From NCBI GenBank assembly GCA_030619905.1, contig JAUXAO010000001.1:119051-183050 (forward strand): 64,000 nucleotides of DNA. Reading direction: 5' to 3'. The position numbers and the translations under genes are program-made. This document shows positions 32,169-49,005 of the stretch, one piece after another (the first letter of the stretch is position 1; each line of letters begins with the position of its first letter). Below the pieces are notes generated by a model. The model made no database searches and was not told where the DNA came from. It was given only the letters and a program-made list of their open reading frames with translations. This DNA comes from a bacterium. Its GTDB lineage: Bacteria > Patescibacteriota > Minisyncoccia > Minisyncoccales > CG1-02-41-26.

Positions 32169-32552
32169 ATGAAAAAGATATTAATTATTGAGGATGAGAA
32201 AATTCTAGTTGAAATGTACAAAAGCAAGCTTGAAGCGAATAACTTTGAAGTCATTTCAGCTTTTTCTTCAGAAGAAGGCATTAGGATATTAAGAAAAGAA
32301 AAACCAGACCTGGTTATTTTAGATATTTTACTACCCAAAGAAAACGGTATTACTTTTTTAGAAAAGATTGAGAAGATAAAAATTATACCTGGTGTGCGGA
32401 TAATTGTTTTTTCAAATTATGACGATCCAGAAACGAGAAAGAAAGCATTCAAATTAGGGGTAGAGGACTATTTAATTAAAACTCAGTTTACCCCTCGGGA
32501 ATTTTTAGAAAAAGTTAAAGAATATTTTAAAAAAAAGCCAAGAGTAAAATGA
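32169..32552 (+). CDS. Stand-alone response-regulator receiver domain
   Basis: IIEDE acidic pocket, phospho-acceptor context LVILDILLP, FSN, and DYLIKT lysine; 127 aa with no output domain. Confidence 0.88.
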   Translation: MKKILIIEDEKILVEMYKSKLEANNFEVISAFSSEEGIRILRKEKPDLVILDILLPKENGITFLEKIEKIKIIPGVRIIVFSNYDDPETRKKAFKLGVEDYLIKTQFTPREFLEKVKEYFKKKPRVK

Positions 32553-33526
32553 ATCAAAAGAAACGTTTTCTCATTATTGATGCTAATGCTTTAATTCATC
32601 GTGCTTATCATGCCTTACCGCCCCTGAGGAACAGGAAAGGAGAATTGATTAATGCCATCTATGGATTTTGTTCGATTTTTTTTAAAGTTCTGAAGGAATT
32701 AGAGCCAGATTTCATTATTGCTGCTTTTGATTTACCATTTCCTACTTTTCGGCATAAAAAATTCAAAGGATACAAAATTAAAAGACCAAAGACTCCAGAG
32801 GAATTATCTCAACAGATCCTTAAAGTAAAAGATCTTCTAAAAGAATTTGACATCCCAGTTCTTGAAAAACAAGGATTCGAAGCAGACGATATTATTGGAA
32901 CAGTTTCTCGATTGGTTTTGAAAAAAGAGACAAAGTCACAAATAGAAAATATTATTCTAACTGGAGATGCTGACCTTTTCCAATTAGTGAGCCCAGACAC
33001 TAAAGTCTATTTTTTAAAAAAAGGAATTAAAAATACTGTTCTTTATAATAAAGAGCTCGTCAAAGAAAGATATCAAGGACTAGATCCAGAAGAATTAGTT
33101 GATTTTAAGGCTCTAAAAGGTGATCCTTCAGATAATATTCCCGGTGTTCCCGGAATCGGAGAGAAAACAGCTATGGAATTAATTAAAAGATTTGGAAGTC
33201 TAGAAAACTTGTATTCTGCCCTGGATCAAGAGCCAACATCAAAAACAAACTCAATTGATTTAAATCAGCGCATCCGAGATTTACTTCAAGAACACAAAGA
33301 AAAAGCCTTTTTTAGCAGAAGTTTAGTCCAAATAGAAAGAAATGTTCCGATTGATTTTAACTTAGAGAAATGCCAATGGGAAGATGGCGATAGAGAAAAG
33401 GTGATACAATCTATAAAAGAACTAGGATTTCGAAGTTTAATTAAACGCCTGCCTAATTTTAAAAAGTCAGAACAAAATGATAATATAAAAGAAGAAAAGG
33501 TCGATTGTCAAAGAAAATTATTCTAA
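32549..33526 (+). CDS. Stand-alone 5'-3' exonuclease / flap endonuclease (Pol I N-terminal domain type)
   Basis: LIIDANALIHRAYHA, EADDIIGT, GDADLFQLV, and H3TH GVPGIGEKTA motifs. Its start overlaps the receiver gene stop (ATGA). Confidence 0.9.
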   Translation: MNQKKRFLIIDANALIHRAYHALPPLRNRKGELINAIYGFCSIFFKVLKELEPDFIIAAFDLPFPTFRHKKFKGYKIKRPKTPEELSQQILKVKDLLKEFDIPVLEKQGFEADDIIGTVSRLVLKKETKSQIENIILTGDADLFQLVSPDTKVYFLKKGIKNTVLYNKELVKERYQGLDPEELVDFKALKGDPSDNIPGVPGIGEKTAMELIKRFGSLENLYSALDQEPTSKTNSIDLNQRIRDLLQEHKEKAFFSRSLVQIERNVPIDFNLEKCQWEDGDREKVIQSIKELGFRSLIKRLPNFKKSEQNDNIKEEKVDCQRKLF

Positions 33527-33540
33527 GACTGTAAAATAAT

Positions 33541-34680
33541 ATGCAAAAAAAAGTTTTAATTTTATTAATCGGACTAACCATAGCGTTGTCAATAATATTG
33601 ATATTCCTAATTAGATATTCACCAGAAGTTGGTCGACAATATGAAGAAATCAGCAGCATTACAATGGTCACAGATGTTGGTGGACTAGGAGATAAATCCT
33701 TTAATGATGCTGGTTGGAATGGAGTTCAGATGGCTAGTAAAGGGTTGGGTATAAAAGCAAATGTTATCCAAAAAATGGAAGAAGAAGATCTTGTGACCAA
33801 TGTTTCACGAGCAGCCGAGGCTTCTGACATAGTGGTTGGCATGGGGTTTATGATAAAAGATGCGATAGCTATAAATGCTTCTTTGTACCCTGATACATAT
33901 TTCATATTGATTGATGAAGATGCGGGTGATTTCCCAAACGTAGCTTCTTATCTTTTCTATTCATGTCAGAGTGGTTATTTAGCTGGAATAATTGCTGCTT
34001 CTGTTTCAGAAACTGGGAAAATCGGCGTAGTAAAAGGGATGGATGTTTCTTCTGTTTTAACTTATGTTGCTGGATTTAAAGCAGGAGCTAAGACCTGGAA
34101 TGAATTTAAAGGAGAAAAGGTTGAAGTTTTAACTAAAACAGCAGGCACTTTTATTGATTCAGCAAAAGGCAGAGCATTAACTAAATCGCTAATTGACGAA
34201 GGTGTTGATATAATATTTGATGTAGCTGGAGCTACTGGGATAGGGGTATATGAGGTTGTTCAGGAGTCTAATAGAGCAGAGGGGATAACTGAGGAGGAAA
34301 TAAGAACAGGTTTAAAAAGACCTAAATATTTTGCTGTTGGTGTAGATGTAGACCATGATGAGATGTATCCAGGAGAAGTTTTAGTTAGCGCTTTAAAGAG
34401 AATGTCAGAGACAATATATAGTGCTGTTGAAGACATTACTAAAAACGGTTTTAAAGGAGGTCTGCATTTAGTTGATTTTAAAGACGGGTTTACTGGAATC
34501 AGTGATATGAAATATACTAAACAGTATGTTCCAGAGCAGGCTTTGAAATTAGTTGAAAAGGCAGAAGAGTTAATGATGAACAGAGACGAGAGATTACTTA
34601 TTCCTTCAGGCCTAACAGACGTTGATGAATATCTAGATAGTTTCGAGGTTCCAGAAGAATTGTTAAAAATAATTAATTAA
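33541..34680 (+). CDS. BMP/PnrA/Med-family periplasmic-type substrate-binding protein, TM-anchored
   Basis: VTDVGGLGDKSFNDAGWNG signature plus GYLAGIIAA. N-terminal TM anchor with no lipobox Cys. No ABC permease or ATPase genes nearby. Confidence 0.8.
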   Translation: MQKKVLILLIGLTIALSIILIFLIRYSPEVGRQYEEISSITMVTDVGGLGDKSFNDAGWNGVQMASKGLGIKANVIQKMEEEDLVTNVSRAAEASDIVVGMGFMIKDAIAINASLYPDTYFILIDEDAGDFPNVASYLFYSCQSGYLAGIIAASVSETGKIGVVKGMDVSSVLTYVAGFKAGAKTWNEFKGEKVEVLTKTAGTFIDSAKGRALTKSLIDEGVDIIFDVAGATGIGVYEVVQESNRAEGITEEEIRTGLKRPKYFAVGVDVDHDEMYPGEVLVSALKRMSETIYSAVEDITKNGFKGGLHLVDFKDGFTGISDMKYTKQYVPEQALKLVEKAEELMMNRDERLLIPSGLTDVDEYLDSFEVPEELLKIIN

Positions 34681-34695
34681 GTTCTAAGAAGAAAA

Positions 34696-35970
34696 ATGAA
34701 GATATTCCTTAGAGAAAAATTTTTTATTGCTTTTTTCATATTAGTTTTGGCTCCTTTAGTGACGGTCAGTCTTTTCTCTTATTTAAATACTCGTAAATTT
34801 CTAATGGAAAGCATTAAAGATTATAATAAGCTTCTTATCCAGAGTATGATTGTGGGGGTAGAAGATGTAGTCTTAAATTACAAAAATTTATCCCAGTCCA
34901 CTCTCAATAACGTCGGCTTTTTTGAAACAATTGAAGAGAAAAAAGAATTCCTTTTAGAAAATAAAAAAAAGTATCCTTATAATATAAAATTTTTATCTGT
35001 TCTGGACAAATCAGGTAAAGAAATAGTCCGCAGCGATGGCCGTTCTTTAGAAGACAAAAGTGATAAGCCGGAATTTTATCAAATTAAGGAAAAGAAAAAA
35101 GATTATTATGTTGCTTGGTTAAATTTTAATCCTGTAGTCGGAATATCTACAGTTATTATTTCCGTACCTCTTTTTGAAGAAAATGAATTTCAAGGAGCTT
35201 TAATCTCAGAAGTATTCCTCTCTGATATTTGGAGCAAAATGGTAGTCGGCTATACTTCACCTAAAGACAATATTTATCTCTTGACTCAAAAAGGAGAACC
35301 AGTGGCAGAAATTCTTGCTGCTTCAAAAGATTTTCGTTCAGACGACCTTAAAGAAATTGCTCAAGGATTGGCTGAGGAAAAAAAGATTGTTATTCAAGAA
35401 ATAGATACGGAATCCGGACAGATGTTGTTTATTGCCGATTTTCTTCCTATGTTTGACTGGGAATTGGTAGTTTTTAGGCAAGTATCAGAAATTTATGAAC
35501 CAGCTTCAATCTTGGCAAGTAATCTAATACTCATTACACTTGTTACTTTAATCTTTATTTTTATGGTTTCCGTATTTTTTTCTCGATTGATTGTTAATCC
35601 CATTAAAAAGCTTCAAGGAGGGGTTGAGATCATCAGAAGAGGGAAACTAGGTTATCGAGTGGACATTCGAACCAATGATGAAATTGAGGAATTAGGAAAA
35701 GCATTCAATAGAATGGCGGAGGAATTGAGTAGATATCACTCTGCTTTAGAAGAGTCTAAAATAGTTTTACAGATAAAAGTAAAAGCAAGAACCAGAGAAT
35801 TAGAAGAGTTATCTAAAAGTTTAGAGGATAAAGTCAAAGAAAGAACAAGAGAACTAGAAGAGAGATTGAGTGAATTAGAAAAATTTCATAAATTAACTGT
35901 GGGAAGGGAATTAAAAATGATGGAGTTAAAAAAAGAATTAGAAGAGTTAAAAAGAAAAAATAAAGGTTAA
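34696..35970 (+). CDS. Membrane sensor: Cache-like ectodomain, TM, HAMP and coiled coil, with no catalytic output domain
   Basis: Two TM helices flank a roughly 250-aa ectodomain. HAMP (IVNPIKKLQGGVEIIRRGKLGYRVDIRTNDEIEELGKAFNRMAEEL). The protein ends in the coiled coil KVKERTRELEERLSELEKFHKLTVGRELKMMELKKELEELK. Confidence 0.75.
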   Translation: MKIFLREKFFIAFFILVLAPLVTVSLFSYLNTRKFLMESIKDYNKLLIQSMIVGVEDVVLNYKNLSQSTLNNVGFFETIEEKKEFLLENKKKYPYNIKFLSVLDKSGKEIVRSDGRSLEDKSDKPEFYQIKEKKKDYYVAWLNFNPVVGISTVIISVPLFEENEFQGALISEVFLSDIWSKMVVGYTSPKDNIYLLTQKGEPVAEILAASKDFRSDDLKEIAQGLAEEKKIVIQEIDTESGQMLFIADFLPMFDWELVVFRQVSEIYEPASILASNLILITLVTLIFIFMVSVFFSRLIVNPIKKLQGGVEIIRRGKLGYRVDIRTNDEIEELGKAFNRMAEELSRYHSALEESKIVLQIKVKARTRELEELSKSLEDKVKERTRELEERLSELEKFHKLTVGRELKMMELKKELEELKRKNKG

Positions 35971-36019
35971 AAAGTCGAAAAAAATATTTATAACTTGAGG
36001 TGATTACAAATTCATAATT

Positions 36020-36628
36020 ATGATTGAGAAGACCTCCTTAATGGAAGAAAAGAAAAAAATATTTCAACTTGCTAAAGGATATGTAAGAGCAACAACACTC
36101 CAAGGTCATTTTAATTATATTCGAGAAAAAGAAGGGAAAGAAGGAGTAAAAAAAGTTCAGGAAAAATTAAAAGAATTAGGATGTTATACAGAACCCTGGG
36201 AATTAGATCCTTTAGCCTGGATACCTTTAGCCAAAGTAGATTTTGTTATTCTCGTTGCTAAAGATGTATTTAATTGGACAGAGGAAGTTATTTTTGAGAT
36301 GGGAAATTCTGCTCCTAAATATTCATTTATTGCAAAGATCTTAATGAAAACCTTTCTCTCTCTTAAAAGAACATTTCAGGAAAGTTCTAAATATTGGAAA
36401 AAGCACTATACAAGTGGCGAACTGATACCCTATAAGATTGACAAAAAAGAGAAATATCTCGTCCTTCGCCTTAAACATTCCTGCCATCCTCTTTTATGTA
36501 TTTTCTATAAGGGTTATTTTTTAAGAATTACTCAGTATGTAATTGAGAGCAAGGAAATAACCATTAAAGAGACTAAATGTATGTCTAAGGGTGCTTCTTA
36601 TCATGAGTTTGTAATCAGCTGGAAGTAA
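36020..36628 (+). CDS. Stand-alone V4R/H-NOX-like small-ligand sensor domain protein (tentative)
   Basis: The C-terminus CIFYKGYFLRITQYV..ITIKETKCMSKGASYHEFVISW follows the V4R-type pattern C.F..G......E..C...G...C.F, with the last Cys replaced by His. Paralog of the next gene. Confidence 0.4.
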   Translation: MIEKTSLMEEKKKIFQLAKGYVRATTLQGHFNYIREKEGKEGVKKVQEKLKELGCYTEPWELDPLAWIPLAKVDFVILVAKDVFNWTEEVIFEMGNSAPKYSFIAKILMKTFLSLKRTFQESSKYWKKHYTSGELIPYKIDKKEKYLVLRLKHSCHPLLCIFYKGYFLRITQYVIESKEITIKETKCMSKGASYHEFVISWK

Positions 36629-36642
36629 TTAATTTTAAATAT

Positions 36643-37230
36643 ATGTTGATGGTTTCGAAACAAGACATTGAAAAAACAAAAAGAATGGAAGGAGAAATAA
36701 TTGGCTCTTCCTTAAAAGCGGACCGGGAATTTATTATAGAAAAGAAAGGCAGAGAAGGATTAAGAAAAGTAGAAAAAGAAATGGAAAAATTAGGTTATGC
36801 TTTAAAGTATGAAGAGATAGATAAATATAAATGGTATCCTGTTCAGCAAGATTTTCTTTCTCTCCTGTTAGCCCAGAAGATTTTTAACTGGAGTGATGAA
36901 ACAATACGAGAATGGGGTCGTTGGGGAGCTAAAACTAATTTTATTATTAAATTAATGGCAAGATTGGTTAGTAAAAAAACAATAGCCAGTTTCGCTTCTA
37001 AATCCTGGAGAAAATATTATACCAGAGGAACAATGGAATATAAATTAGATGATGAAAAGAGAGTTGGCACTGCAATAATAAAAGATTTTACTATTTATCC
37101 GGTTCATCTTCATTATTTAGAGGGATATTTTTATCAAATACTGTCTCTTGTAGAACCCTCCCCGAACTTGAAAGTGAAAGGAGTTGAAACTAAAGATTCT
37201 AATGTTCACCGATTTGAAGTAACTTGGTAA
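36643..37230 (+). CDS. Paralog of 36020..36628 (V4R/H-NOX-like sensor domain, tentative)
   Basis: Collinear with the preceding ORF (EGLRKVEKEMEKLGY, FNWSDETIREWG, WRKYYTRGTMEY, HYLEGYFYQIL, HRFEVTW). Confidence 0.4.
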   Translation: MLMVSKQDIEKTKRMEGEIIGSSLKADREFIIEKKGREGLRKVEKEMEKLGYALKYEEIDKYKWYPVQQDFLSLLLAQKIFNWSDETIREWGRWGAKTNFIIKLMARLVSKKTIASFASKSWRKYYTRGTMEYKLDDEKRVGTAIIKDFTIYPVHLHYLEGYFYQILSLVEPSPNLKVKGVETKDSNVHRFEVTW

Positions 37231-37273
37231 ATTATACGAGAAATTAGTAAACCTTGAAGTAAAATCTATAATT

Positions 37274-37864
37274 ATGAATGATAGAGGAAAAACAGAAAAT
37301 TTGCTTAAAATGGCTGTAGAAGATTTGAAGGACATTGAAATATATGTCCAAGAATATTCTACTTTTTTGCCTTTGGCAGTTTGTACTATTAATCCTCTGG
37401 GGATAATCCTTAACAGTAATCAGGCTTTCCAAAAGTTAACCGGTTATAAGGAAATAGAAGCGATAGGAAAAAAGATGAAGGATTTGTTTTTGAATAAAGA
37501 AAATTTCAAAGATTTAATTAAAGAAAAGACTCTTAAGGGGAAATCGAGCCTAACTCGAAAAATGACTCTCTTAACTAAAGAGGAGAAGAAGATGCCTGTC
37601 AGTATGGCGATTTCTATCAGAAGGGACGAAGAAGATAATTTTATAGGACATTTTATAGCCCTTTCTGATATCACTGCTTTTGAAGACCTGAGAAAAAATT
37701 TAGAAAAAAAAGTAAAAGAAAGAACAAAACAACTCCAGGAGAGAGTTGATGAATTAGAGAAATTTAGGAGATTAACCGAAGGGAGAGAGCTGAAAATGGT
37801 TGAATTAAAAGAAGAAATCAAAAAATTAAAAGAAGAATTAGAAAAACAAAAAGGTCGAAAATAA
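37274..37864 (+). CDS. Cytoplasmic PAS-domain protein ending in the same coiled-coil motif as the HAMP sensor
   Basis: PAS-like core (LPLAVCTINPLGIILNSNQAFQKLTGYKEIEAIGKKMKDLF..). C-terminus KVKERTKQLQERVDELEKFRRLTEGRELKMVELKEEIKKLK. Confidence 0.7.
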   Translation: MNDRGKTENLLKMAVEDLKDIEIYVQEYSTFLPLAVCTINPLGIILNSNQAFQKLTGYKEIEAIGKKMKDLFLNKENFKDLIKEKTLKGKSSLTRKMTLLTKEEKKMPVSMAISIRRDEEDNFIGHFIALSDITAFEDLRKNLEKKVKERTKQLQERVDELEKFRRLTEGRELKMVELKEEIKKLKEELEKQKGRK

Positions 37865-37998
37865 AATTAATAGAAGCAGATAAACGCGGATAAACGCAGA
37901 AAATATTGGGGATAAATTATTGTGTAAAGAAATTACCTATGAAATCAGTGGAGCGTGCTTCTGCGTCATTATCAGCGCAAATCCGCTTCTACAAACAT

Positions 37999-39180
37999 AT
38001 GATTAAAGCAGGAGTAGGAAGAAGTAATGATCCTGATGCCACAAAAGCTGGAGCTGAGGCGGCCAGAATGGCCCTAAAAGAAACTGGTGGCAAAGCCAAT
38101 TTGATTGTTGTTTTCTCAACAGTTGCTTATGATCAGAAAAAAATGCTTGACGGAGTAAGAACGATTTCTAAAGAGATTCCTTTGGTTGGTTGCAGTACTT
38201 CCGGAGAAATTACTACCGAAGGCCCAGTAGCAAAACACGTAGCGGTAACGGCTTTGAGTTCAGATAAGATTGAATGGACAGTAGGAGTTGGAAAAGGTAC
38301 TGATAAAGATTCTTTCCAAGCTGGGAAAGAAGCAGCCCAAGAAGTAAAAAATAAAGCCAAAGAAGAACTTTCTTTGTTCGTAATGTTGTTAGATGGTTTG
38401 TCTGAAAATGGAGCAGCAGCGGTTAGGGGAGTGCAGGCAGTTTTGGGAGAACAATTTCCTATTATGGGAGGTTCAGCCGGAGATGATTTTTTGTTCAAGA
38501 AAACATATGAGTATTATAATGGAGAGATTCTGGAAAATAGTGTAATAGGAATAGGTCTTTCTGGAAAATTCTCCTTTGGGGTAGGAGTACGACACGGCTG
38601 GGAACCAATTGGTCTTCCAATGAAAGTGACTAAAGCTGAAGGGGCAGTTTTAAAAGAACTTGATAATCAACCGGCGCTGAAGATTTACGAGGATTATTTT
38701 GGGAAGAAAGCTGAAGAGTTAACTAAAGAACCAATTGCTCGAATGGCTTACACTTATCCTTTAGGAATGAGTGTTGAAGGAAGTTCCGAGCTTTTAATTA
38801 GAGATGTGATTATAGCTAACGAAAAAGGAGAAATTACTTGTGCAGCTGAAATTCCTCAAGGTTCAGAGATTCGGCTAATGTTGGGAGATACAGAAAAAGC
38901 TATTCAGGCCGCCAAAGAAGCAGCTGAGGGGGCTCTTTCTCAACTTAAAGGATCTAGACCAAAGGTAATTTTTGTCTTCAATTGTATGGCTCGAAACAAA
39001 CTTTTAGGAGCAAGGATTGGAGAAGAAATTGTGGCTATTCAGAATGTTCTGGGCAAGGAGGTTCCTTTGGTCGGTTTTTATACTTATGGAGAGCAAGCTC
39101 CTTTGGGTGGAGTAATCGGACCAGAATGTCGCTCAGTTTTTCATAACGAGACCATGACTTTAGTGGTATTGGGAGAGTAG
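37999..39180 (+). CDS. FIST-domain signal-transduction protein (FIST_N + FIST_C)
   Basis: AEAARMALKETGGKANLIVVFSTVAYDQKKMLDGV..PLVGCSTSGEI and the C-terminal FNCMARNKLLG..VGFYTYGEQAP. The ORF track extends to TTG 37906 (ATG also at 37939). I prefer ATG 37999 (MIKAGVGRSNDPDAT) because the upstream part overlaps a GC-rich repeat element. Confidence 0.8.
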   Translation: MIKAGVGRSNDPDATKAGAEAARMALKETGGKANLIVVFSTVAYDQKKMLDGVRTISKEIPLVGCSTSGEITTEGPVAKHVAVTALSSDKIEWTVGVGKGTDKDSFQAGKEAAQEVKNKAKEELSLFVMLLDGLSENGAAAVRGVQAVLGEQFPIMGGSAGDDFLFKKTYEYYNGEILENSVIGIGLSGKFSFGVGVRHGWEPIGLPMKVTKAEGAVLKELDNQPALKIYEDYFGKKAEELTKEPIARMAYTYPLGMSVEGSSELLIRDVIIANEKGEITCAAEIPQGSEIRLMLGDTEKAIQAAKEAAEGALSQLKGSRPKVIFVFNCMARNKLLGARIGEEIVAIQNVLGKEVPLVGFYTYGEQAPLGGVIGPECRSVFHNETMTLVVLGE

Positions 39181-39213
39181 AAAAAATTAAAAATTAAAGT
39201 TTAAAAATTAAAA

Positions 39214-39229
39214 TTAGCTAATTAGCTAA
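39214..39229. promoter_or_regulatory. Perfect 16-nt palindrome upstream of the histidine-kinase gene (candidate operator)
   Basis: ttagctaa-ttagctaa, read directly; 19 nt upstream of the ATG at 39248. Confidence 0.25.
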
Positions 39230-39247
39230 AAGATTTTTGGTTTTTGA

Positions 39248-40507
39248 ATGAAAAAAAATTCTATTAAAAAAATTAAAGAAGTGGGAACTTTGGAAGAATT
39301 GGATCGGATTGCCAAAATGTTGGTAAGGCGAGATTTTGAGTTGTCAGAAATTCGAGAAAAAAGAGATGCGGAATTGAAAGAATTAGAGAAGAGAAATAAA
39401 GAAATTACAGGATCAAGAATTGCTTTAATGAATATTCTTGAGGATGTAGAAAAAGCGAAAGAAAAATCTGAAGAAGAAAGAGACAAGACTTTGGCAATTT
39501 TTGATAACTTTCCTGAAGGGCTTTTGTTTCTTGATAAAGAAAATAGAATTTCCTCAGCCAACCCAGATATTAAAGATCTTTTTGGATTGGATCCTGAGAA
39601 AATAATTGGGAAGAGAATAGATGAGTTAGGAAAATCTTCATTAGCTCCCTTTATAGATATTTTAAAAGAAAGTCCTAAAGGGATTTATAGGAAAGAATTA
39701 AAATTAAAAGAAAATTTAATTTTGGAAATATCAGCTATTCCAGTAATGAAGGTTGAAGAAAAAATTGGAACATTAATTATTTTACGAGATGTAACTCGGG
39801 AAAAAATCATAGAACGATTAAAGACTGAATTTGTTTCTATTGTTGCCCATCAACTGAGAACTCCTCTCTCAGCAGTAAAATGGACATTGAAAATGATCCT
39901 AGACGGAGATTTGGGAGAGGTTTCAAAGGAACAGAGAGAGTTTCTTAATAAGACATACATAAGTAACGAAAGAATGATTCGCCTGATTAATGATCTCTTA
40001 AATATCACCAGAATTGAAGAAGGAAGATTTCTCTATAATGTCCAAAAACAAAGTATAATAGAGGTAGCTGAAAGAGTAATCGCTTCTTCTAGAGAAGAGG
40101 CTCAAAGAAGGGGAATCCGTTTTGAATTCAAAAAACCGAGAAAGAAAATACCCGAAGTAAAGATTGATTCGGAAAAGATTTCTCTTGTTTTTCAGAATCT
40201 ACTTGATAATGCTATCCATTACACGAAAACCGGCGGCCATGTTAAAGTTTCTATTGACTATTTAAAAGATGAAGAAAAAATAATAATTTCAGTTAAAGAT
40301 ACAGGAATTGGTATTCTTAAAGACCAGCAAAAAAGAGTATTCTCAAGATTCTTCAGAGGAGCGAATGCAATTAAGACAGAGACTGAAGGAACAGGTCTCG
40401 GGCTTTTTATTGCCAAGAATATAGTTGAGGCTCACAATGGTAAAATCTGGTTTGAGTCCAGAAAAAACAAAGGAAGTACTTTTCATTTTAGCCTTCCGAC
40501 TTCCTAA
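39248..40507 (+). CDS. Cytoplasmic sensor histidine kinase (coiled coil - PAS - HisKA - HATPase_c)
   Basis: H-box FVSIVAHQLRTPLSAV, N-box FQNLLDNAIHYT, G1 VKDTGIGI, G2 GTGLGLFIAKNIV. No TM segment. N-terminal ALMNILEDVEKAKE coiled coil. Confidence 0.92.
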   Translation: MKKNSIKKIKEVGTLEELDRIAKMLVRRDFELSEIREKRDAELKELEKRNKEITGSRIALMNILEDVEKAKEKSEEERDKTLAIFDNFPEGLLFLDKENRISSANPDIKDLFGLDPEKIIGKRIDELGKSSLAPFIDILKESPKGIYRKELKLKENLILEISAIPVMKVEEKIGTLIILRDVTREKIIERLKTEFVSIVAHQLRTPLSAVKWTLKMILDGDLGEVSKEQREFLNKTYISNERMIRLINDLLNITRIEEGRFLYNVQKQSIIEVAERVIASSREEAQRRGIRFEFKKPRKKIPEVKIDSEKISLVFQNLLDNAIHYTKTGGHVKVSIDYLKDEEKIIISVKDTGIGILKDQQKRVFSRFFRGANAIKTETEGTGLGLFIAKNIVEAHNGKIWFESRKNKGSTFHFSLPTS

Positions 40508-40561
40508 AGAAAACTTGATGAATCTTTAAAAAAGTTTTAAGATATATTAAAGTAATTAAAA

Positions 40562-41101
40562 ATGGAAAGAATAATTCAAGAATTACAAAAGGATTTACGA
40601 AATATTATAGAAGAGAAAAAGCCTAGGGCTTTAAGGAAAAAGATCGGAGATTTGGTTGATCTTCGGGCATTGAGAATCATTAATTTTTCTTTACAATGGG
40701 CTTCAGCAGGTTATAAATCTGCTTTGAGATTCGCTGGGATGAAATTTGGCAGGAGACTAGGAGAAATGTCTTCGAGCAGAGAACTTTCCTCAGTTTTAAA
40801 AGAGATTAAAAAGATAGTGGAAGAGTTAAAGGAGGGTGAGGTAAAATTCCAGATTATAGAAAAGAAAAGCATAGCCCAGTTTAAGGTCTACAATTCTTCT
40901 TTGACAAATTCTGTGCCGAATATTTCTCAAAATCTTTGTCTATTCAGAGAAGGGTTTATTGAGGGTTATCTGGTAGGGATAATTGCTGTCAGAGGTTTGC
41001 TTCAAGTATTTTTTAAGAATATTAATAGGGTTGAAGTTAAAGAAACAAAATGTCAGGGAAAGGGAGATAAATTTTGTCAGTTTACTATTGTTTTAAAGTA
41101 A
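40562..41101 (+). CDS. V4R (4-vinyl-reductase-type) domain protein
   Basis: The C-terminal signature LCLFREGFIEGYL..VEVKETKCQGKGDKFCQFTIV matches the V4R pattern. Confidence 0.6.
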   Translation: MERIIQELQKDLRNIIEEKKPRALRKKIGDLVDLRALRIINFSLQWASAGYKSALRFAGMKFGRRLGEMSSSRELSSVLKEIKKIVEELKEGEVKFQIIEKKSIAQFKVYNSSLTNSVPNISQNLCLFREGFIEGYLVGIIAVRGLLQVFFKNINRVEVKETKCQGKGDKFCQFTIVLK

Positions 41102-41138
41102 AATATGTTAAAATAAATAAAATAAGAAATAAAATACT

Positions 41139-41507
41139 ATGCCTAAAAAAATTTTAATTATTGAAGACGAAGAACTTTTATGCAATTTATTAAAAAGAAA
41201 ACTAAATGAAGAAGGTTATCAAACTTCAGTTGCCAAGGACGGAGTTGAAGGAATGAAAATGATAAAAGAAATAAAACCCGACCTTATCTTGCTTGATATT
41301 GTAATGCCTAATAAAAATGGTTTTGAAGTAATGGATGAAATGCAGACTGATGAGAAATTAAAACATATTCCTATCATCGTAATTTCAAATTCTGGTCAGC
41401 CAGTTGAAATTGATAAAGCCAAAGAACTAGGAGCTAAAGACTGGCTAATTAAAACTGAATTTGATCCACAAGAAGTAATTGAAAAAGTCAAAAAACAAAT
41501 AGGTTAA
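41139..41507 (+). CDS. Stand-alone response-regulator receiver domain
   Basis: IIEDEE, LILLDIVMP phospho-acceptor context, ISN, DWLIKT; 122 aa. Confidence 0.9.
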   Translation: MPKKILIIEDEELLCNLLKRKLNEEGYQTSVAKDGVEGMKMIKEIKPDLILLDIVMPNKNGFEVMDEMQTDEKLKHIPIIVISNSGQPVEIDKAKELGAKDWLIKTEFDPQEVIEKVKKQIG

Positions 41508-41557
41508 AAGTGATGTCAATTATGAATCTAAATTAACATATTTGCATCATATAATTT

Positions 41558-41923
41558 ATGGCTAAAATATTAATCATTGAGGATGATAAGTTCTTAAGAG
41601 AACTAATGGTGAGAAAACTCAGTCAGGAAAATTTTAATGTTCTGGAAGCAGTCGATGGTGAAGAAGGAATTAAAAAAATGAAAGAAATAGTTCCTGATTT
41701 ACTTCTACTTGATTTGATTTTGCCGGGAATTGATGGATTTGAGGTTTTATCAAAGATAAAAGAAGATCCAGCAACAGCTTCTGTCCCGGTAGTCATTCTT
41801 TCAAATCTTGGCCAGAGAGAAGATGTAGAGCGAGGATTGAAGCTCGGGGCGGTAGATTATTTGGTTAAAGCTCACTTTACCCCGAATGAGATTATCGAAA
41901 AAGTTAAAACAAACCTGAAGTAG
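41558..41923 (+). CDS. Stand-alone response-regulator receiver domain
   Basis: IIEDDK, LLLLDLILP, LSN, DYLVKA; 121 aa. Confidence 0.9.
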   Translation: MAKILIIEDDKFLRELMVRKLSQENFNVLEAVDGEEGIKKMKEIVPDLLLLDLILPGIDGFEVLSKIKEDPATASVPVVILSNLGQREDVERGLKLGAVDYLVKAHFTPNEIIEKVKTNLK

Positions 41924-41999
41924 AAACTCCACTCTCTATCTGTTAATTGATATTATGAACCTTTTGTAATATTCTTTGATTTGGAGAGAGGAGTTTTTT
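41924..41999 (+). terminator. Long hairpin plus T-run at the end of the sensory operon
   Basis: aaactccactctct (41924-41937) pairs with ggagagaggagttt (41983-41996) over 12-13 bp with one mismatch. About 45-nt loop, then tttttt. Confidence 0.4.
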
Positions 42000-42016
42000 A
42001 ATCAGATAAATACATT

Positions 42017-42973
42017 ATGATAATTTTTCTTTACGGTAAAGATACATATAGATTGCAACAAAAACTGCAAGAAATTGAAGCTCAATACAAAGAAGTCCAC
42101 AAAAGTGGACTGAATTTAGAAAAAATAGATGTTCTTCAAATAGAATTTGAAGAATTTGCTGATAAGTTGTTTCAGCATTCAATGTTTATTAAAAAGAAAT
42201 TATTTTTCTTAGAAAATTTATTTTCTAGCCAAAAATTCAAAGAAAAATTCTTAGAAAAAATTAAAGAGATTACGAAATCTCAAGATCTTATCGTTGTTTT
42301 TGAAAAAAAGGAATTACCTAAAAGAGACAAGCTTTTTCTTAATCTAAAAAAGTACGGAAAATCTCAGGAATTTGAACATTTAAAAGGAAAAGTACTGGAA
42401 GATTGGGTAAAAAATGAATTTCAAAAAGAGAAGATAAAAGTTTCTGAGCAAGCCATGAATCTCCTTCTGGAATTTATTGGTAATGATTTATGGCAGCTTT
42501 CAAATGAAATTAAAAAATTAGTTTGTCTTAAAAAACCTCTTAAAGCGAGTGATTTGATTGAAGAAGTAAAAAGCGAAGATGTTGAAACCTTAATCAAGCC
42601 AAAACTTGAAGCGAATATTTTTAAAATAATTGATGCTTTATCTCAGAAAAATAAGAAGAAAGCTCTTAGGTTAATTCAGGAGAGCTTACTTAAAGAGAAT
42701 AAACCCCTGGCTATTTTAAACATGATAAATTTTCAGTTTAGAGGTCTTCTAATCGCTAAAACTTTAATGGAAGAAGGCAAGACTTTAAACGACTTTTTGA
42801 AATTAAATATTCTTAAACCTTACCCAACAAGAAAATGTTGGTATGCAAGTACAGAATTTAGTTTAAATCAATTAAAAAAGATCTACCAAAAGATTTTTGA
42901 GGCAGATCTAAGTATAAAAACAGGGAAGATCCAACCAGAAGAAGGACTTAAGATGTTAGTTGCAGGAATATAA
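42017..42973 (+). CDS. holA: DNA polymerase III delta subunit
   Basis: 318 aa. N-terminal IFLYGKDTYRLQQKLQEI pattern and a helical C-terminal domain typical of short HolA. Assigned by overall pattern rather than a sharp motif. Confidence 0.65.
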   Translation: MIIFLYGKDTYRLQQKLQEIEAQYKEVHKSGLNLEKIDVLQIEFEEFADKLFQHSMFIKKKLFFLENLFSSQKFKEKFLEKIKEITKSQDLIVVFEKKELPKRDKLFLNLKKYGKSQEFEHLKGKVLEDWVKNEFQKEKIKVSEQAMNLLLEFIGNDLWQLSNEIKKLVCLKKPLKASDLIEEVKSEDVETLIKPKLEANIFKIIDALSQKNKKKALRLIQESLLKENKPLAILNMINFQFRGLLIAKTLMEEGKTLNDFLKLNILKPYPTRKCWYASTEFSLNQLKKIYQKIFEADLSIKTGKIQPEEGLKMLVAGI

Positions 42974-48933: not shown

Positions 48934-49005
48934 GCCCTTGTAGTTCAACGGACAGAACATAGTCCTCCGGAGACTGAGATGGAAGTTCGATTCTTCCCAG
49001 GGGCA
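48934..49005 (+). tRNA. tRNA-Arg (anticodon CCG)
   Basis: Manual cloverleaf: acceptor GCCCTTG/CAGGGGC, D-arm GTTC-AACGGACA-GAAC, anticodon arm TAGTC-CTCCGGA-GACTG, T-arm GGAAG-TTCGATT-CTTCC, discriminator A. CCA is not encoded. Confidence 0.88.

Follow-up and report, generated by a model that had tools for sequence, protein, structure and literature searches.

How does a sensor that has no output domain pass on what it senses? The question is raised by a locus in a 64,000-nucleotide stretch of a patescibacterial genome (contig JAUXAO010000001.1; the whole stretch is called the window here, and positions refer to it), where the interval 34696-37864 holds four co-directional genes encoding a Cache-HAMP sensor (sensor 1), two V4R-like open reading frames (ORFs) and a PAS sensor (sensor 2). 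Pfam and NCBIfam scans detected no output domain in either sensor, and a soluble histidine kinase is encoded further downstream on the same strand. We describe here a conserved C-terminal module of such sensors, motif A, and a conserved N-terminal element of the kinases encoded after them, motif B. We are highly confident that A-sensors and B-kinases work together as partners. The reading we favour, with appreciable room for doubt, is that A binds B directly, making the region a split sensor kinase assembled through an A2B2 complex.

A previous, sequence-only reading of this DNA had noted that both output-less sensors end in a common signature of about 40 amino acids, and this was borne out. 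BLASTP aligns the two proteins at their C-termini alone, with 27 of 40 residues identical, 35 of 40 positive and an E value of 1e-13, and the common tail reads KVKERT..L.ER..ELEKF..LT.GRELKM.ELK. Its core, GRELKMxELK, is present in exactly two copies in the six-frame translation of the window, one in each sensor (Table 1). Searched against 1.84 billion cluster representatives, a 51-position tail profile matched 14,023 of them at E<=1e-3 and 1,213 at E<=1e-10, a similarity that goes far beyond chance or composition and marks motif A as a specific module, not a generic coiled coil. Across its members the consensus is ELE[KR]F.[KR]L[TA]VGRELKM[IV]ELK.EI..LK. In 115 distinct A tails, E, R and T occur at positions -21, -20 and -19 in 64, 49 and 55% of cases, and Q-R-T/R variants are found in non-patescibacterial tails.

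A genome scan for motif A, covering one genome per GTDB species, gave at least 600 pattern matches, of which 80 loci were kept. Among the matches listed, bacterial loci belong to Patescibacteria, Acidobacteriota, Geobacter, Anaeromyxobacter, Bdellovibrio, Planctomycetota, Nitrospirota, Elusimicrobia, Simiduia and Duganella, and archaeal loci to Methanotrichaceae, Methanosarcinales, Thermoplasmatales, Woesearchaeota and Iainarchaeum; a tblastn search of plasmids with the A tail gave no match. The carriers in the kept loci range from about 110 to 1,152 amino acids. The Pfam families frequent in 75 A proteins are PAS (44), HAMP (16), Cache and GAF; the 25 commonest families include none of a kinase, cyclase, phosphodiesterase or methyl-accepting chemotaxis protein. 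The position of the module is equally constant: in 89 of 89 copies among the matches listed, 11-47 residues separate the core from the stop codon, and the profile match sits at the very C-terminus in about 144 of the best 150 representatives. With a relaxed pattern, none of 134 copies in 160 loci was internal and none stood in an ORF with kinase motifs. The sequence-only reading had recognized the GRELKM.ELK helix as a linker inside multi-domain kinases, a view that the copies sampled here do not bear out.

Some peculiarities of the tail deserve mention in their own right. Rare internal copies (P0119, P0143, P0015 and P0016) look like two A-ended sensor modules in head-to-tail fusion, not like kinases, and some tails run on into ...LG.PP.Y. 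The NCBIfam NosR linker model (NF053512), followed as a lead to internal copies of A, scored 16-23 bits for a cut-off of 400 and was treated as generic similarity to signalling helices; it matches the patescibacterial-type tail only, and the Acidobacteria-type tail gave no match.

Motif B, [ST][RQ].A[LIV][LM]N[IL]LED, lies near the N-terminus of the kinase. In the window kinase, residues 58-73 (nt 39419-39466) read RIALMNILEDVEKAKE, and this is the sole real ORF of the window carrying LMNILED. All 65 B proteins tested have HATPase_c, 56 of them together with HisKA and nine with HisKA_2/HWE. Outside Patescibacteria, B is a 21-residue (three-heptad) unit, E.TQRA.LNILEDF..EK..L, present in one to six copies and then followed by ...ANRELEAFSYSVSHDLR; many short kinases of this kind consist of B repeats, the dimerization and histidine phosphotransfer (DHp) domain and the catalytic and ATP-binding (CA) domain only, and are otherwise sensor-less. 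The B profile, run by itself against the database, gave no more than four N-terminal fragments. The window kinase itself is a sensor histidine kinase of the HisKA class, with HisKA and HATPase_c both above their gathering scores, and its H201, N321, D351, G353, G355 and G385 are the same in all 65 aligned kinases.

The genes for the two motifs form an ordered pair. In 68 of 78 A-seeded genome loci (taken from the matches listed), the A gene is followed on its own strand by a B ORF, and a 69th locus (L011) has a downstream partner with the variant ALMNILND; of 1,434 opposite-strand ORFs in A-seeded loci, one carries the B motif. Of the kinases encoded first after A, 57 of 64 carry B, versus three of 37 other kinases in the same loci (Fisher 1.4e-16), and most of the seven first kinases without B are an artefact, the motif filter having missed HWE-type kinases. 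B is thus a mark of the partner kinase of A and not of kinases generally. Reciprocally, among the 42 loci of a B-seeded metagenome scan whose upstream sequence exceeded 3 kb, 31 have one or more A-ended ORFs upstream, and not a single such ORF lies downstream or antisense. The window follows this pattern, with A at 35902 and 37781 ending two output-less sensors and B at 39425 in a downstream kinase on the same strand. The pairing extends over Patescibacteria, Acidobacteriota, Desulfobacterota/Geobacter, Myxococcota, Bdellovibrionota, Planctomycetota, Nitrospirota, Gamma- and Betaproteobacteria and several archaeal orders, and over unrelated sensor domains. Comparative genomics therefore lends strong support to the split sensor-kinase that the sequence-only reading had suggested, through a conserved, ordered A-B gene pair in many phyla. 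Furthermore, A is unchanged whether the DHp domain of the partner is HisKA or HisKA_2, and therefore B is the constant element of the partner.

The spacing of the two genes bears on two other explanations. Gaps in A-seeded loci run from -11 to 4,026 nt, with 53 of at most 156 nt and 24 that are 4-nt ATGA overlaps. These overlaps could mean that the A and B genes are made as one polypeptide by recoding, through read-through or frameshift. The overlap, however, places B in another frame, while elsewhere the gaps are wide and may contain whole genes, in the window too. The residues directly before the stop of A proteins are variable, with no conserved slippery site evident, and a fused protein is absent among 8,000 word-sharing candidates scored with a profile made from 30 A tails joined to their partner B heads. 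Because of the frames and gaps, recoding into one chain is in effect excluded, and we leave it hardly any probability. It might also be that A and B are not in contact, each binding a third component such as a scaffold, a localization factor or a response regulator. Single-domain response regulators do follow the kinase in nearly all loci, and Patescibacteria have V4R-like and FIST genes between A and B; outside Patescibacteria, however, A and B genes adjoin or overlap and no third gene is conserved between them, and the V4R and FIST genes are variably present. We regard a bridging third component as very unlikely.

Further evidence for a split system comes from kinases in which sensor and transmitter are not separated. 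The sequence-only reading had looked to fused homologues in other genomes as a check; single chains joining sensor, signalling helix, B and kinase were found, and no chain with both A and B among 8,000 scored candidates or in the 160 loci. The former run sensor, ERT-type signalling helix, B and kinase with a fixed heptad phase (Table 1). They are Rosetta-stone evidence that sensors of the window types and a kinase of the window type work as one unit. The single-chain forms go from the ERT helix directly into B, and they show A to be used only where the chain is broken.

Heptad register adds to this picture. The signalling helix (S-helix) is a heptad helix of about 40 residues with ERT at positions c, d and e of its central heptad (Anantharaman, Balaji and Aravind, 2006; PMC1592074). 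Both window sensors have this signature, as KVKERT. In 55 of 73 A tails the second invariant arginine (that of GRE) lies 21 residues past the ERT arginine, which places G at c, R at d, E at e, K at g, M at a, L at d and K at e. In B kinases with their own ERT, the B asparagine follows the ERT arginine by 13 residues (20 cases) or by 20 (15 cases), both being 6 modulo 7, and the heptad assignment of B is L at a, N at c, I at d, L at e, E at f and D at g; in the window kinase the asparagine comes 13 residues after the arginine of the degenerate KRN. The glycine of A, at +20 in 55 of 73 tails, has the same phase as the B asparagine and, in half of the fused cases, also the same offset. The invariant N, E and D of B therefore face outwards in a B homodimer, as they would in a surface made for binding, and invariant residues at surface positions argue for such a binding face over a simple homodimer zipper.

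The same register weighs on the proposal that A is no more than a homodimerization or stability cap. The output-less sensors would then work by PAS-PAS contacts or have unrelated targets, and the neighbourhood of A and B would be a legacy of common operon ancestry, not a sign of an interface. Long C-terminal helices of short PAS/LOV proteins are known dimerization elements, and A has a heptad pattern with Leu, Ile or Met at a and d in its last three heptads. Its invariants, however, fall at non-core positions (G at c, E at e, K at g, E at c and K at e), and arginine occupies three d positions, which by this assignment is unfavourable for a simple zipper. Many partner kinases are also without a PAS domain to contact, and ancestry alone is hard to invoke for a pairing found across many phyla and with unrelated sensor domains. 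We therefore judge a mere cap to be quite unlikely.

In the split sensor kinase that we favour, two input modules and one catalytic module reside on separate polypeptides, and the sensors and the kinase would each be dimers with long helical ends. A would be a C-terminal and B an N-terminal docking domain: the helices of an A dimer would lie against the exposed N/E/D face of the B coiled coil, itself a dimer, the probable form being a parallel A2B2 four-helix bundle, and this packing would reconstitute the sensor-to-transmitter helix that is continuous in the single-chain relatives. A conformational change of the sensor signalling helix could then pass non-covalently to the kinase stalk, and from there to the PAS and DHp domains, setting autophosphorylation and subsequently the phosphorylation of the two downstream single-domain receivers (41139 and 41558), which are likely the phospho-acceptors of the kinase. 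Where the genes overlap by 4 nt, translational coupling may favour assembly. The soluble kinase of the window could in this manner be engaged both by the membrane-bound Cache-HAMP sensor, itself probably fed by the adjoining Bmp/PnrA binding protein, and by the PAS sensor. NosP acts on NahK through surfaces other than an A-type tail, and the FIST and V4R proteins of the window, which are without this tail, might likewise act through other surfaces.

Several observations weigh against direct docking. The strict form of the Rosetta-stone search, A and then B in one chain, was unsuccessful: none was present among 1,076 matches to the joined profile, the best of which (about 85 bits) cover the A half only, nor in a pattern scan of the 160 loci, and such fusions are absent or rare. 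The Rosetta-stone argument hence covers sensor and kinase, not A and B. Some B kinases with their own fused sensor still follow an A-sensor (L001, L006), and end-to-end docking cannot be general because these kinases already carry a sensor in the same chain. A profile search of the PDB found no chain that carries A or B, only designed coiled coils at E ~0.5. Single-sequence AlphaFold2 models agree with the proposal in that residues 133-193 of the PAS protein form one unbroken helix and residues 15-86 of the kinase likewise (pLDDT 74-93), but their overall confidence is low, with a mean pLDDT of about 54-55 and poorly modelled globular parts. Mutual-information covariation on 111 A/B pairs gave strong signals that were dominated by clade structure with a poor clade split, and it was not used. 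About 26% of the B kinases in the B-seeded metagenome loci have no A gene within about 5 kb upstream. Finally, the B repeat number (1-6) does not follow the number of A-sensors (1-3), and two Thermoplasmatales metagenome-assembled genomes have a TM-Cache-HAMP-A sensor gene with a 4-nt overlap into that of a PAS kinase, a multi-pass membrane protein without B (L031:6195-10087 and L065:6183-9961).

The last two observations are in favour of a different arrangement, in which the sensors regulate the neighbouring kinase through an A tail that binds its DHp, catalytic or PAS domain, as regulators of the Sda/KipI or FixT type do, B being a lineage stalk or spacer. An additional argument is that A has the ...ELExF junction and the spacing of a junction between signalling helix and DHp domain. 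The spacing from ERT over 13 residues to Phe, together with a glycine of A at the histidine position, had hinted that A could be a truncated, His-less DHp helix 1. This candidate was rejected, as hhalign aligns 23 columns (P 0.01) and stops at the Phe, past which A has no profile similarity to DHp helix 1 (probability 4%). Binding to a kinase domain is also difficult to reconcile with a nearly invariant A, given that the partner DHp comes from two families, HisKA and HisKA_2/HWE, and that only 22 of 65 partners possess a PAS domain. B is the sole partner element as constant as A, and its invariant residues occupy surface heptad positions. We consider such regulation unlikely, though far from negligible, and retain docking of A on B as the preferred explanation.

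A bolder extension would make of A and B a plug and socket for two-component signalling that is universal and portable in bacteria and archaea, such that any A-sensor docks any B kinase, interchangeable sensors serve one kinase, cassettes are swapped without touching the kinase, and tandem B repeats act as multi-dock or length-tuning stalks. Swapping of the sensor cassette without change of the kinase is suggested by the hypervariable cassette in the conserved patescibacterial locus, described below, and in such a system the Cache-HAMP and PAS sensors of the window could compete or cooperate on one B site. We hold this extension to be possible but doubtful.

Table 1. Features of the window and of related loci discussed in the text (positions in nucleotides; loci outside the window carry their locus number)
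Feature	Position	Strand	Description
Bmp/PnrA-type substrate-binding lipoprotein	33541-34680	+	Directly 5' of sensor 1; Pfam Bmp 7.3e-51
Sensor 1, membrane	34696-35970	+	424 aa; TM, dCache_1 (aa 38-259), TM, HAMP (294-345), two ERT-type signalling-helix units, motif A
Motif A module of sensor 1	35830-35967	+	KVKERTRELEERLSELEKFHKLTVGRELKMMELKKELEELKRKNKG; ERT at 35839, GRELKMMELK at 35902-35931, stop at 35968
Two tandem V4R-like proteins	36020-36628, 36643-37230	+	About 200 aa each; between the A-sensors; weak Pfam V4R match 1.3e-4
Sensor 2, cytoplasmic	37274-37864	+	196 aa; N-terminal helix, PAS (32-135), ERT signalling helix, motif A; Pfam PAS_9 3e-12
Motif A module of sensor 2	37709-37861	+	KVKERTKQLQERVDELEKFRRLTEGRELKMVELKEEIKKLKEELEKQKGRK; GRELKMVELK at 37781-37810
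FIST_N + FIST_C protein	37906-39180	+	Between sensor 2 and kinase; stand-alone sensor, NosP-type fold; Pfam FIST 7.1e-49 (PF08495), FIST_C 2.3e-35 (PF10442)
Soluble histidine kinase	39248-40507	+	N-terminal helix with motif B, PAS, HisKA, HATPase_c; Pfam HATPase_c 4.8e-31, HisKA 1e-16, PAS_9 9.7e-09
Kinase N-terminal helix	39290-39505	+	aa 15-86; degenerate ERT = KRN (aa 47-49); motif B ALMNILED at aa 60-67, LMNILED at nt 39425-39445
V4R-domain protein	40562-41101	+	Directly 3' of kinase; Pfam V4R 1.9e-10; kept in L083, L089, L098, L101, L107
Single-domain response regulators	41139-41507, 41558-41923	+	First: Pfam Response_reg 5.6e-25; second: receiver by reading of sequence alone
Single-chain Cache-HAMP kinase	L008; HAMP version L019		Cache-HAMP-...EKRTRELNLKIEELRKSRTALINILED...-PAS-HisKA
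Single-chain PAS kinases	L001, L006		PAS-...ARTKDLENSRTALLNMLED...-PAS-HisKA
B-repeat kinases outside Patescibacteria	L020:8153-9205, L016:8216-9196, L012:8126-9817, L063:549-1706

The surroundings of the pair were compared by BLAST of the window proteins against the fetched loci L001-L160. In Patescibacteria a syntenic frame is apparent (window 32169-42973), consisting of a receiver (REC) gene, a 5'-3' exonuclease gene, a sensor cassette, the B kinase, in some cases a V4R gene, two further REC genes and holA. The cassette alone varies between genomes, with zero to four A-sensors, zero to four V4R-like genes and zero to two FIST genes. One locus (L103) has the gene order of the window at 73-86% identity, and homologues of both window response regulators, 60-88% identical, come after the B kinase in nearly all patescibacterial loci. 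A scan for promoters and terminators gave counts near those of shuffled controls; the only terminator-like site on the + strand in 32169-42973 is at 37367, inside the PAS ORF, a result compatible with one operon but uninformative. At the 5' end of the frame, the genes for a single-domain response regulator (32169-32552) and for the exonuclease (32549-33526) share 4 nt, and this pair of genes is also found in L086, L087 and L151. Rfam and ARAGORN detected a single RNA gene in the window, a tRNA-Arg(CCG) at 48934-49005.

Sensor 1 has two hydrophobic segments, and a HAMP domain (PF00672; E 5.9e-14, 52.6 bits versus a cut-off of 25) after the second transmembrane (TM) segment identifies it as a HAMP-containing receptor; its dCache_1 match (9e-09) is under the gathering score of that family. 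Between HAMP and A, at 35770-35860, the helix has tandem ERT-type units (VKARTRELEEL...VKERTRELEE) whose arginines are 18 residues apart, a 4-residue stutter relative to heptads, and a similar duplication is present in many patescibacterial HAMP-A tails. The Bmp/PnrA gene is always directly upstream of the orthologous Cache-HAMP-A sensor (L070, L103, L140 and L151). The lipoprotein is a probable ligand-delivering partner of the Cache domain, and by analogy the pair suggests binding-protein-dependent sensing of the LuxP/LuxQ or TorT/TorS type.

The FIST and V4R-like proteins of the cluster are without an A tail. The end of the FIST gene is 67 nt from the kinase start, an arrangement of FIST_N and FIST_C beside a kinase as in NosP/NahK pairs, and the same position is occupied in many related loci. 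The protein scores 113 bits with the NCBIfam NosP model (NF041558), for which the cut-off is 450, and nitric oxide sensing cannot be assumed because this is far under the level of an equivalog. The window cluster also contains three V4R-like paralogues of about 200 aa with a weak Pfam V4R match; homologues of the pair between the sensors recur in the variable cassette of related loci, where up to four stand in tandem (L014:2309-4740).

Work on how a signal reaches the kinase from its sensor usually deals with single chains, whose coiled-coil linker cannot be dismantled. A natural linker split into two conserved, separately encoded halves would thus be a tractable model for coiled-coil signal transmission. 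The A/B pair would also explain thousands of output-less proteins annotated as HAMP or 'PAS domain S-box', as well as the kinases that genome annotations leave 'sensor-less', and would offer a ready-made orthogonal connector for the engineering of many-to-one biosensors. Additionally, it is of interest for the biology of Patescibacteria, which have few regulators and keep one conserved kinase locus with a fast-changing set of plug-in sensors.

Among known systems, the S-helix is closest in sequence, sharing the ERT signature and heptads with the first half of the A module and with the helix before B, and the ERT-(13)-Phe spacing of S-helix-to-DHp junctions is the same in the A module. The S-helix is defined, however, as a linker between an upstream sensor or receiver and a downstream output domain of one chain (PMC1592074), whereas the A-module helix ends the protein with no domain after it and adds a distinct, more conserved tail of 25 residues, F..LTVGRELKM.ELK.EI..LK, which is outside the S-helix description. 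In split histidine kinases (PMC3591291; Hik36-Hik43, PMC7656254) the functions of one kinase are likewise spread over two polypeptides, but the division there is between DHp and catalytic or CheA-like modules; the A/B split lies between input and transmitter and leaves the kinase core intact, the window kinase holding its phospho-acceptor and ATP-binding modules in one ORF (39248-40507).

The H-NOX/HnoK and NosP/NahK systems (PMC11784011, PMC12570481, PMC8738867) resemble the A/B pair in that sensor and kinase are separate products of one operon and the sensor acts in trans, and a FIST gene of NosP fold directly precedes the window kinase. Their sensors are globular single-domain proteins without a dedicated conserved docking helix. 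In the A/B pair, by contrast, unrelated sensors (Cache-HAMP, PAS, GAF and multi-PAS) have one terminal motif and the kinases a matching one.

HAMP domains are parallel four-helix bundles that relay signals between sensor and kinase, and the proposed A2B2 complex would be a HAMP-like relay made of two polypeptides. HAMP has both of its helices in one chain, joined by a connector, and neither A nor B matches the HAMP profile, although sensor 1 has a genuine HAMP upstream of A. A non-covalent junction of the kind proposed is familiar from polyketide synthases, where the docking domains of DEBS2/DEBS3, studied by Broadhurst and co-workers in 2003, reportedly combine a C-terminal helix and an N-terminal coiled coil in a four-helix bundle. 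As in these polyketide and non-ribosomal peptide synthases (PKS/NRPS), the products are encoded by consecutive genes, and an upstream C-terminal helix and a downstream N-terminal coiled coil would join two dimers non-covalently. There is no sequence relationship, the biology is another, and the hypothetical A/B complex would relay a conformational signal, which goes beyond the positioning of a carrier domain.

Neither A nor B is covered by a Pfam-A or NCBIfam model; taken in isolation, both modules give sub-threshold coiled-coil noise only, and no family matches all members of the A set (75 proteins) or of the B set (65 proteins). Literature searches with motif strings and for split or bipartite kinases, output-less sensors and patescibacterial two-component systems returned, within the library searched, no paper that has these strings or describes the pair. 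While coupling in trans is itself already known, these comparisons suggest that what is new here is a non-covalent coupling of sensor and kinase through a dedicated, conserved helical connector in two parts.

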